This document shows positions 6,001-9,000 of a stretch of DNA of 15,922 bases, piece after piece. Made by a program: the position numbers. Source of the stretch: a virus; UHGV virus genome UHGV-0144335, one strand, 5' to 3'. Each line of letters starts with the position of its first letter. Positions within the stretch are counted from its first letter, which is position 1.

Positions 6001-9000
6001 AGCCATGCGAGGCATGACGGACGCTGAAATTGACGCGATTCTGGAAAAACTCGGGTAACCACTGAAGGAGTACTGACGTAATGACCACAGTAACAACAGC
6101 CCAGGCGAATAAGCTGTATCAGGTGGCGCTTTTCACGGCTGCCAACCGAAACCGCTCGATGGTGAATATTCTCACTGAACAGCAGGATGCACCAAAAGCA
6201 GTTTCGCCTGACAAGAAAAGCACGAAGCAGACCAGTGCAGGTGCACCGGTTGTGCGAATCACGGACCTCAACAAACAGGCCGGTGATGAAGTGACGTTCA
6301 GCATCATGCACAAACTCTCTAAACGTCCGACGATGGGGGATGAGCGCGTTGAAGGCCGTGGTGAAGACCTCAGCCATGCTGATTTTTCCCTGAAAATTAA
6401 TCAGGGCCGTCACCTGGTGGATGCGGGCGGACGTATGAGCCAGCAGCGTACGAAGTTCAACCTGGCATCCTCTGCCAGAACGCTGCTGGGTACGTACTTT
6501 AACGACCTGCAAGACCAGTGTGCGATAGTGCATCTTGCCGGTGCCCGCGGTGATTTTGTTGCTGATGACACCATTCTGCCAACGGCAGATCACCCTGAAT
6601 TCAAAAAAATCATGATCAACGACGTACTGCCGCCGACGCATGATCGTCATTTTTTCGGTGGGGATGCGACGAGTTTTGAGAGTATTGACCAGTCTGACCT
6701 GTTCACCCTTGCGCTGGTCGATAATCTCTCGTTGTTTATTGACGAGATGGCTCATCCGTTACAACCGGTACGCCTGTCCGGTGATGAATTGTATGGCGAA
6801 GATCCGTATTACGTCCTCTACGTCACGCCGCGTCAGTGGAATGACTGGTACACCTCCACGTCCGGCAAGGACTGGAACCAGATGATGACGCGTGCCGTAA
6901 ACCGCTCAAAAGGTTTTAACCATCCGCTGTTCAAAGGCGAATGTGCGATGTGGCGCAATATTCTGGTCCGTAAGTATGCGGGGATGCCGATCCGTTTCTA
7001 TCAGGGGTCAAAGGTTATGGTGTCGAACAATGACCTTACGGCAACGATGGCAGAAAAGGCTGCTGCAACCAACATCGACCGTGCCATGCTGCTGGGGGCT
7101 CAGGCGCTGGCGAATGCGTACGGTCAGAAGGGCGGCGGTCACTTCAACATGGTTGAGAAGAAAACGGATATGGATAACCGTACTGAGATAGCAATCAGCT
7201 GGATCAACGGTCTGAAAAAAATCCGTTTCCCCGAGAAGAGCGGCAAGATGCAGGATCACGGCGTGATTGCCATTGATACCGCAGTGAAGCTGTGATTTTT
7301 CCTTTCCCCATGCCGGGTTATCGCCCGGCTTTTTCAGGAGTCATTAATTATGGCAAAGACTATCCTTGCTCCATCACTGAGTGAGCGGATTTATTCAGGT
7401 ACGCACGGTAATGAGTCGGTGGCAGAAGGTGTGTTTACAGTGAACGCTGCGGAAGCGGACAGTGTTATTCATCTTCTTTCACTGCCAGTTGGTATCCGTA
7501 TCAACTCACTGCAACTGGTTTCAACGGGCGGTCTGGGTACTGCAACCGTCAGCATTAAGTCCGGTGAGCATGTTCTCATCGATAACAGCGAAGCTGTTTC
7601 TGCAAAATTTGCCAGATATGTGCCCGTGGAGCCGTACACCACACTGCGTGACGGGGAGCTGGTTACTGTCACCATTAAGACTGCCGCTGCAACCGGCACC
7701 CTGAATGTTCTGCTGCGTTATACCGTGGTGGGTTACTGATATAAACCTTCTGGCCCGCGTCATGCGGGCTTTTTTACCCGGGGAATTATATGAGCGAAAA
7801 AATTGCCGTTGTCTATATCGGCCCCAAACCCGTGAAAAAGGATACCCTTACCGGGAGTCGCACACTGTTCCCGCGTCTTGAGCCGGTGCATGTTGACAAT
7901 GCGTTTGCTTGGCAGTTGCTGGCCTTTTCTGACGTCTGGGTTCGTCATGAAGAGCTTGATGGCGTACTGAAAAAGCAACAACAGGATGAGCAGTTGCGGC
8001 AGGCACAGCAGGCGCAGGAAAGAGAACAGGTTGCTCTTGCAGAAGCGGAGAACAGTTTTGTGGTTAGCGTTGGTGGTCAGGATGTGGATTTGAGCAAACT
8101 CACGTCCGCACGGCTGGCAACGTTGTGTGAGGCAGAAGAGCTGAATATTCACAAAGACCCGAAAGAAACGGCTGATGCATTCCGTGTCCGTGTGCGTGAG
8201 GCATTTCGCCGTCGTGTTGCGGAGACTGAACAGCATGGCGGAACTGACTGATTTTTTACCGTATGTCCGTCGCCATATCAGTGGTCCGCTGAACATTATG
8301 ATGACGGATGCGTTATCCATGTCGGCAGTGGCATTCTGCCGTCAGTCCCTGTTGTGCCGCCGTGAAGCCACGCTGTCACCGTCAGCTGGAGAGGACTGTG
8401 TGCTGCCATATGACGCGGAGAATGAAGAGTGCGTACATATTATTCGTATCCTCGCTGACGGGCGTGAGCTTTTTGCCGGTCATGATGTAGAAATCCGCCC
8501 GGGGCGGGTAATGCATTTTGCCTGTTCGCCCGGAGAGGTGAGTGTGCTTTATGCCGTTGCTCCGAAAGCAGGGAGCCGTCAGGTGCAGGATGAACTGCGG
8601 GCATGGTCTGAAGAAGTGGCAGCAGGGGCGCTTGAACGGTTGTTCATGCAGACCGGGGTTTCATGGTCAGACCCGTCGCGCGCACAGTATTTCTCTGTGC
8701 TGTTTTCTGAGGGTATCCGTCGGGCATATCGCGACACACTGGCGACAAGTCCGTACTCCTCATACCGCAATCCTGTCCGCAGACAAAGGTTTTACTGATG
8801 ACGACGATTACAGAAATCATCGGACGTGTGAATACACAACTGGTTGACCCGATGATGGTTCGCTGGCCCCTGCAGGAATTGTGCGATTATTACAATGATG
8901 CTGTGAGGGCAGTGATTCTGGCGAGACCGGATGCTGGCGCAAGCCTGGAAACAATCAGTTGTGTTCCGGGCGCCCGTCAGGTTTTGCCCGATGGTGTAAT

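Follow-up and report, generated by a model that had tools for sequence, protein, structure and literature searches.

What does a small gene set between two terminator-like hairpins, directly after the coat gene of a phage head module, contribute to the virion, and what do the hairpins contribute to its expression? The locus was studied in a stretch of 15,922 nucleotides (nt) of the virus genome UHGV-0144335, called here the window, where an open reading frame (ORF) for 129 amino acids (aa), at 7350–7739 on the plus strand, lies between the two hairpins. An earlier note on this DNA had proposed that the gene encodes a capsid accessory or decoration protein, needed in a dose between that of the coat and that of the downstream proteins, and that the two hairpins set this dose by stepwise attenuation. 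We find that the ORF, which starts at an ATG, is a capsid cementing protein gene, the ortholog of vb_24B_31 of phage phi24B and of ORF63 (ECs1224) of phage Sp5. The window carries the head/tail module of a Shiga toxin (Stx)-type prophage (Sepvirinae) like 933W/phi24B: megablast of 6000–8400 matched 192 phage records with 80–96% identity, nearly all of them Sepvirinae Stx-converting or related phages of Escherichia coli and Shigella.

The window cement protein is identical to phi24B vb_24B_31 at 125 of 129 positions (97%) over the full 129 residues, with four substitutions only (I14V, S16T, V75A and L98Q), and its identity to the ortholog of Sp5 (VT2-Sakai) is 96.9%. It matches PHROG 486, ‘virion structural protein’, from end to end (E=1.2e-59). 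No meaningful family was found in Pfam (E<=1) or NCBIfam, and a PDB sequence search with the single cement sequence gave chance matches only (E>0.2), in a PDB copy that evidently lacks the phi24B entries. The AlphaFold2 model made from a 20-sequence alignment has a predicted local distance difference test (pLDDT) score of 94.3 and supersedes a single-sequence run (pLDDT 64.8). Apart from an N-terminal arm it is an 8-stranded, all-beta sandwich, residues 4–11 forming a short strand and a helix that precede the 8 strands; the beta-rich product announced in the earlier note was thus recovered. The top four PDB matches of this model in Foldseek were all phage cement proteins: 7eel_H (Pam1), 8h89_J (GP4), 7dn2 (KHP30) and 7dou (KHP40). 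Decoration by an immunoglobulin (Ig)-like protein of the Hoc, pb10 or N4 gp17 type was rejected, since there was no Ig family match and the structural neighbours were cement proteins and jelly-roll/C1q-like sandwiches.

A profile built from 34 family members matched the Pam1 cement protein 7eel_H (E=1.7e-5), with the invariant G-x-x-G-N motif aligned; it gave no sequence-level match to the cement proteins of GP4, KHP30 and KHP40. The family is of modest size (73 clusters at 50% identity). Residues G17, G20 and N21 are invariant in it, Y15 and S23 are invariant or nearly so, and His19, present in the window protein, varies across the family, where Q, L, Y, A, S, G or N can replace it. Two candidate members from the representative search were discarded: P0087, a cadherin-like repeat protein, is a spurious match, and P0049 looks like a fusion or frameshift product. 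A distant member of 424 aa, P0101, has a cement-like N-terminal domain followed by a long extension resembling Ig, which suggests that some cement relatives display extra surface domains.

Where this protein sits in the virion is known from phi24B, in which gp67 was identified as a trimeric capsid cementing protein with cryo-electron microscopy (cryo-EM) and proteomics (bioRxiv 10.64898/2026.04.10.717836). Per asymmetric unit, the T=9 shell contains nine subunits each of coat and cement protein and two of gp84; trimers of gp67, whose N-arm is followed by a 4+4 beta domain and which is anchored through His19, sit where three capsomers meet, and the decoration at hexon centres is the N-terminus of gp84, separate from gp67 (bioRxiv 10.64898/2026.04.10.717836). 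The gp numbers were assigned by counting the coding sequence (CDS) features of HM208303 backwards from the ~2,800-aa protein (gp47 in the preprint). This count gives portal as gp72, coat as gp69 and the 129-aa vb_24B_31 as gp67, and it reproduces the preprint's list of modelled virion proteins. The capsid role foreseen in the earlier note therefore holds, given the 97% identity to the phi24B cement protein and the Foldseek matches, and the protein would be a constituent of virions, in which the phi24B ortholog was detected by cryo-EM and mass spectrometry. The window gene shares with phi24B gp67 and Sp5 ORF63 its position after the coat gene, His19 and a predicted N-arm with an 8-stranded sandwich, and no functional difference from gp67 is expected. 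By analogy with these near-identical orthologs, the window protein would form trimers on the outside of a T=9 HK97-fold shell, at the meeting points of three capsomers, with one copy per coat subunit.

More distant cement proteins occupy the same place. Pam1 gp6 (7EEL chain H) is the best structural match, with a Foldseek E of 7.9e-6 and a template modelling (TM) score of 0.65; it is ~18–21% identical to the window protein, and its host belongs to a different phylum (Pam1 is a cyanophage). The Pam1 virion is of the myophage type. GP4 gp1 (8H89 chain J; TM 0.72 for 8h89_J) and the cement proteins of KHP30 (7DN2) and KHP40 (7DOU) have the same fold class and the same three-capsomer role, and GP4 carries 540 cement and 540 coat copies in a T=9 shell. 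The Pam1 cement protein forms the same trimer and the same ‘hugging’ N-arm interface as gp67; that of GP4 is anchored by Asp and lacks the hugging N-arm interface (bioRxiv 10.64898/2026.04.10.717836).

Genetic data exist for the Sp5 ortholog. An in-frame, marker-free deletion of ORF63 (ECs1224, 129 aa) was made, and ORF63 appears neither in the list of the nine genes needed for plaques and lysogeny nor in that of mutants whose yield changed (PMC5155283). The deletion leaves both flanking hairpins in place. Because ORF63 is absent from both lists, the cement protein appears dispensable in laboratory conditions, as are many decoration and cement proteins, and the same would apply to the window protein. 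The finding is real but ordinary and largely already known: structure, copy number and capsid place were published in 2026 for a 97%-identical ortholog, and dispensability for plaques follows from the 2016 deletion study. It does allow the entries called ‘hypothetical’ or ‘virion structural protein’ in Stx prophages to be renamed capsid cement protein. Conservation of the hairpins across genera, described below, is a small addition.

The first hairpin, element 1, consists of the stem-loop GCCGGGU-UAUC-GCCCGGC (7312–7329) and the tract UUUUU (7330–7334); it is on the plus strand, spans 7312–7334 and begins 16 nt after the coat stop codon. Its U-tract ends one base 5' of the Shine-Dalgarno sequence (SD) of the cement gene, AGGAG (7336–7340, plus strand, extended to CAGGAG), which is placed 9 nt before the ATG. 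Element 2 (7752–7776, plus strand) comprises GGCCCGC-GUCAU-GCGGGCU (7752–7770) and UUUUUU (7771–7776), 12 nt after the cement stop codon. The arrangement is in every part, and at every position, as the earlier note had described it: a 129-aa ORF with its own AGGAG, after the coat gene and bracketed by hairpins with T-tracts. Both stems have 7 bp with at least six G-C pairs, and the loops are of 4 nt (element 1) and 5 nt (element 2); if G-U is counted, the stem of element 2 reaches up to 8 pairs and its loop is then 3 nt. Folded in isolation, the elements have energies of –13.9 kcal/mol (z=–3.7) and –13.7 kcal/mol (z=–3.65), respectively, z being calculated against dinucleotide shuffles. Both have the form of a Rho-independent terminator, a GC-rich stem-loop followed by a U-tract on the sense strand, 3' of a stop codon.

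A scan for stems of 7 bp with at least six G-C pairs, a loop of 3–8 nt and at least five T in the next 6 nt returned elements 1 and 2 as the only sites on both strands of the 15.9-kb window. First-order Markov simulations gave a chance expectation of 0.003 sites per strand, a figure that is only indicative and overstates significance, as the scan settings were chosen post hoc. The elements are not bidirectional terminators, since a T-run is absent on the minus-strand side of either hairpin and both are one-directional. RNase III processing sites were also rejected; stems of 7 bp are considered too short for this enzyme. No Rfam family matched the window at gathering thresholds, and neither of the 50–54 nt gaps that flank the cement gene contained a promoter-like site.

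The hairpins were then compared in relatives, namely annotated phage records, contigs with distant homologs (Edwardsiella, 38–42%, and Salmonella, 54% protein identity) and 65 viral contigs. A hairpin with a T-run was present in both gaps that flank the cement gene in all four or five diverged lineages examined (E. coli, Salmonella-like, Edwardsiella and Vibrio), the T-run of the first Vibrio gap being weak. In the gap from coat to cement (gap 1), E. coli phages have GCCGGGU...GCCCGGC; Salmonella-like loci have the E. coli stem or the variants GUCGGG/CCCGGC and GCCGGGU/ACCCGGC; Edwardsiella loci have GGCAGGC/GCCUGCC; and Vibrio phage douglas 12A4 has an 11-bp stem, UAGGGUAGCGC/GUGUUACCCUA, with the weaker T-run. 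In the gap from cement to the next gene (gap 2), the corresponding stems are GGCCCGC...GCGGGCU, GCCCGC/GCGGGC, (A/G)GGCCC/GGGCCU and, in douglas 12A4, AAGGCUUCA/UGAGGCCUU. The gap 1 stems of Edwardsiella and Vibrio thus differ in sequence from that of E. coli. In phi24B the flanking hairpins are present, with a 1-nt loop change and U5 instead of U6. Across lineages, the T-run ends one or two bases 5' of the SD of the next gene in both gaps, and for the cement gene this SD, directly 3' of the T-run, is AGGAG or AAGGA in all lineages. That structure and position are kept while sequence varies argues for selection on an RNA or DNA element, and hence for hairpins conserved under selection. This argument is made from the presence of a hairpin in each lineage and not from covariation statistics; RNAalifold on MAFFT alignments of both intergenic regions found almost no consensus structure, as the hairpins of the different lineages cannot be aligned column by column.

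In GER2 (locus L005, ~2945–4850), two transposase genes of an insertion sequence (IS) element lie between the T-run of element 2 and the start of the downstream gene. The megablast match of Stx2_07Y06 is split, consistent with a ~1.3-kb insertion in the same 2.4-kb stretch.

A third terminator-like hairpin, with a 10-bp stem and a T-run, is located in the gap between portal and scaffold genes (4910–4935, plus strand; –18.5 kcal/mol for the intergenic segment). A hairpin was found between these two genes in all lineages scanned, and hairpins were located in relatives, each of which has one 5' of the scaffold gene, at 538–556 and 1685–1704 of locus L007, 591–610 of L006 and 1339–1357 of L003. 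Salmonella-like loci have an extra hairpin between scaffold and coat genes. On the 3' side, the gene at 7790–8251 opens a tightly overlapping neck and tail block (overlaps of –17, –1 and –4 nt), and the window hairpin scan found no strong, conserved intergenic hairpins among these overlapping genes. The pattern would therefore be a punctuation of the high-copy head block by hairpins, and not merely a bracket around one gene.

How such hairpins may act depends on the polymerase that meets them. In Stx phages, Q antitermination at tR' is required before the late genes can be expressed from pR', a promoter that is constitutively active in lysogens and restrained only by tR' (PMC7547250). Expression of the neck and tail genes needs read-through, because these genes overlap and no promoter-like site was found 3' of the cement gene (~7740–9700); the hairpins are therefore not strong terminators in lytic growth. 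In lambdoid phages, the Q-modified polymerase resists intrinsic terminators over tens of kilobases. In such a Q-antiterminated late operon, a strict attenuation ladder is a less likely role for the hairpins than leaky punctuation for 3' ends or stability, or than fail-safe termination.

We propose that the morphogenesis block is made as one late transcript by Q-antiterminated polymerase, which would mostly read through the hairpins, and that these would serve as leaky punctuation that forms and protects 3' ends. Partial termination, on the one hand, and stalling of 3'-to-5' exonucleases at the hairpins after downstream cleavage, on the other, would both yield additional stable messages, with 3' ends behind the coat gene and behind the cement gene. 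The coat gene (SD GAAGGAG, strong) and the cement gene own the strongest SDs, and strong ribosome binding combined with stable mRNA would favour these two ~540-copy proteins over the ~12-copy neck proteins. The functionally important step-down would then be situated after the cement gene, not between coat and cement. We consider the explanation that combines the cement protein identity with leaky, 3'-end-protecting hairpins to be probable; leaky termination with 3'-end protection, when judged separately, is a tentative proposal drawn from the sequence, for and against which the balance is nearly even.

The attenuation ladder of the earlier note, with two partial terminators that step transcription down from coat to cement protein and again to downstream genes, would match an intermediate copy number. 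The geometry of both sites is that of canonical terminators, a terminator after the coat gene is common in phages (T-phi of T7, for example), and neck proteins are needed at ~12 copies compared with ~540 for coat and cement. However, with nine coat and nine cement subunits per asymmetric unit in phi24B, the two proteins are equimolar and no intermediate dose is required, so the claim of a dose between coat and downstream proteins is not supported; strong attenuation between coat and cement genes would oppose the equimolar ratio, and the large drop in demand, from ~540 to ~12 copies, falls after the cement gene. Late transcription is moreover antiterminated by Q, and a pure ladder cannot explain the conserved hairpin 5' of the scaffold and coat genes (4910–4935), where attenuation would lower the most needed products. 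We regard the ladder as improbable. A larger chance, which still leaves it rather unlikely, is given to the main rival, fail-safe termination. The hairpins would stop polymerases not modified by Q, whether these come from read-through of tR' in lysogens or from spurious starts in the prophage, and would prevent expression of the strongly translated genes for scaffold, coat and cement protein in the lysogen, while being transparent in lytic growth and without any role in stoichiometry. This fits the location of the T-runs, directly 5' of the next SD or ~115 nt 5' of the scaffold start, and the presence of a hairpin ahead of the scaffold gene, of the cement gene and of the gene that follows it, and, in Salmonella-like loci, ahead of the coat gene too. 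It also fits a pR' that is always on in lysogens and held by tR' alone (PMC7547250), and the phage L genome paper names the same possibility for the terminator of the procapsid module in a P22-like late operon. It leaves unexplained why hairpins cluster at the high-copy head genes, whereas tail genes, whose leakage would be equally wasteful, have none.

Control at the level of translation is very improbable in our judgement. Hairpin 1 would here cap a longer stem formed, in read-through RNA, by pairing of the cement AGGAG with a pyrimidine tract upstream, so that translation of the cement protein is tuned or delayed relative to that of the coat. In predicted minimum free energy folds from four lineages, the SD does pair with CCUU, UCUC or UCC tracts, and its mean unpaired probability is 0.18–0.56: in the window, the read-through RNA is predicted to fold at 7299–7340 and 7755–7785 and to leave the cement AGGAG an unpaired probability of 0.18, possibly by chance, and predicted folds of the Salmonella-like, Edwardsiella and Vibrio gaps show comparable pairing of the SD. 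Yet short pyrimidine-purine pairings easily arise by chance, the pairing partners lie at non-equivalent positions in the four lineages, and an equimolar need speaks against repression. Finally, a late-operon gene with a terminator on either side is sometimes a moron, and the hairpins could be functionless leftovers of the own transcription unit of a recently acquired cassette, or of recombination joints. This reading has next to no chance and was rejected: neither flanking gap has a promoter-like site, the G+C fraction is normal (0.513, against 0.524 in neighbours), relatives from E. coli to Vibrio carry the gene at this position together with both hairpins, the gene being universal there, and the protein is a stoichiometric component of the shell.

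Several points nevertheless weigh against the combination of cement protein and leaky, 3'-end-protecting hairpins that we favour. The equation of gp67 with vb_24B_31 rests on the CDS count, the size match and His19, and the preprint prints no protein accession. Termination, 3' ends and longer mRNA half-lives at the hairpins are predictions from the DNA, and the Q-modified polymerase may ignore the hairpins entirely, in which case there would be no termination-based step-down in lytic growth. A 3'-end stabiliser at 4910–4935 would stabilise the mRNA of low-copy terminase and portal proteins, and it therefore fits badly with a logic of more mRNA for high-copy genes. In lambda, the ratios of late gene products are reportedly set mainly by translation initiation; by comparison, the contribution of the RNA elements may be small.

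The most elaborate version of the proposal is that, in a Q-antiterminated operon transcribed in full by read-through polymerase, the hairpins around the scaffold, coat and cement genes, each directly 5' of the next ribosome-binding site, act as a special code for dosage at the RNA level, which would deliver stable processed segments for the ~500-copy proteins, and that they might also gate the SD of the cement gene. We find such a code unlikely. If it existed, the persistence of ‘useless’ terminators in lambdoid late operons, a point that the phage L authors leave open, would have an explanation. These authors describe a terminator that ends the procapsid module in a P22-like late operon, call the roles of such terminators unknown, and suggest either partial termination or the stopping of non-antiterminated transcription. 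Phage L/P22, and T7 with its T-phi, likewise have a hairpin and a U-tract after coat or procapsid genes, within one late unit read by a terminator-resistant polymerase. T7 uses the phage's own polymerase, and T-phi, after gene 10, is a documented partial terminator. The window differs from phage L and T7 in having two, and really three, elements, which bracket single genes and are conserved across genera. The general question raised is the role of conserved intrinsic terminators in late operons that are read by terminator-resistant polymerase. The locus is a convenient one for this question, as it offers three conserved elements, existing Term-seq data (strain Sakai; GEO accessions in PMC7547250) and the marker-free deletion system of Sp5. 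In the literature on transcript maps of the Stx-phage late region, we found no coverage or 3'-end data for the hairpin sites.

The remaining genes of the window follow the order expected for the module. Upstream of the cement gene are terS (247–1062), terL (1043–2749), the portal gene (2749–4893), the scaffold-like gene (5051–6058) and the coat gene (6081–7295, plus strand). The last encodes a 404-aa protein of HK97 fold and Phage_capsid_3 type (PF13252, E=6.6e-88; PHROG 334, major head protein); among solved structures, the GP4 capsid protein 8h89_A comes closest to it (E=4.8e-40). Downstream are a 153-aa gene (7790–8251, plus strand; PHROG 482, Sp5 ORF64), two adaptor genes (8235–8798 and 8798–9448, the second matching PF24175 SU10_adaptor) and the tail fibre gene (9445–11349, plus strand). 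In POCJ13, an annotated relative, the genes stand in the same order: small and large terminase, portal, a 335-aa protein, the major head protein plus a 130-aa ‘virion structural protein’, then three small proteins and a collagen-repeat tail fibre. Synteny of portal, scaffold, coat, cement and SU10-type adaptor genes is maintained from E. coli to Vibrio relatives.

Deletion of Sp5 ORF64 reduces lysogenisation (PMC5155283). In older records, the start of this downstream gene is placed ~23 nt after the cement stop codon, which gives a protein of 162 aa (vb_24B_33, L002 8409; VT2-Sakai orf55, L076 1913) and falls inside element 2. The conserved ATG at 7790 (153 aa), which follows the hairpin and an SD, is the likelier start and agrees with the Sp5 re-annotation. 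The next gene, Sp5 ORF65 (window 8235–8798) or phi24B gp64, is assigned differently in two papers. The Sp5 study calls the 187-aa ORF65 ‘scaffolding’, since the mutant makes spiral coat structures, and the 335-aa ORF61 ‘head formation, unknown’ (PMC5155283); its ortholog gp64, by our own gp mapping, is one of the two adapter rings in the phi24B cryo-EM model. The 335-aa ORF61 corresponds to window 5051–6058.

The tail fibre of 634 aa (9445–11349) contains long collagen-like G-x-x repeats, and the local G+C fraction is 0.61, compared with 0.52. Terminator-like hairpins on the opposite strand are found inside the fibre gene (10324–10307) and just upstream of it (9416–9393). Beyond the genes of the tail-fibre region is a 340-nt gap (11967–12308) with a strong hairpin (11978–11997) read on the minus strand; it is preceded by A9 on the plus strand, which gives minus-strand transcripts a T9 terminator. 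The late region may therefore contain a small leftward unit, which would comprise a minus-strand ORF (12156–12437, 93 aa). At the position of this gap, POCJ13 has different genes (fibre adhesin, cor).

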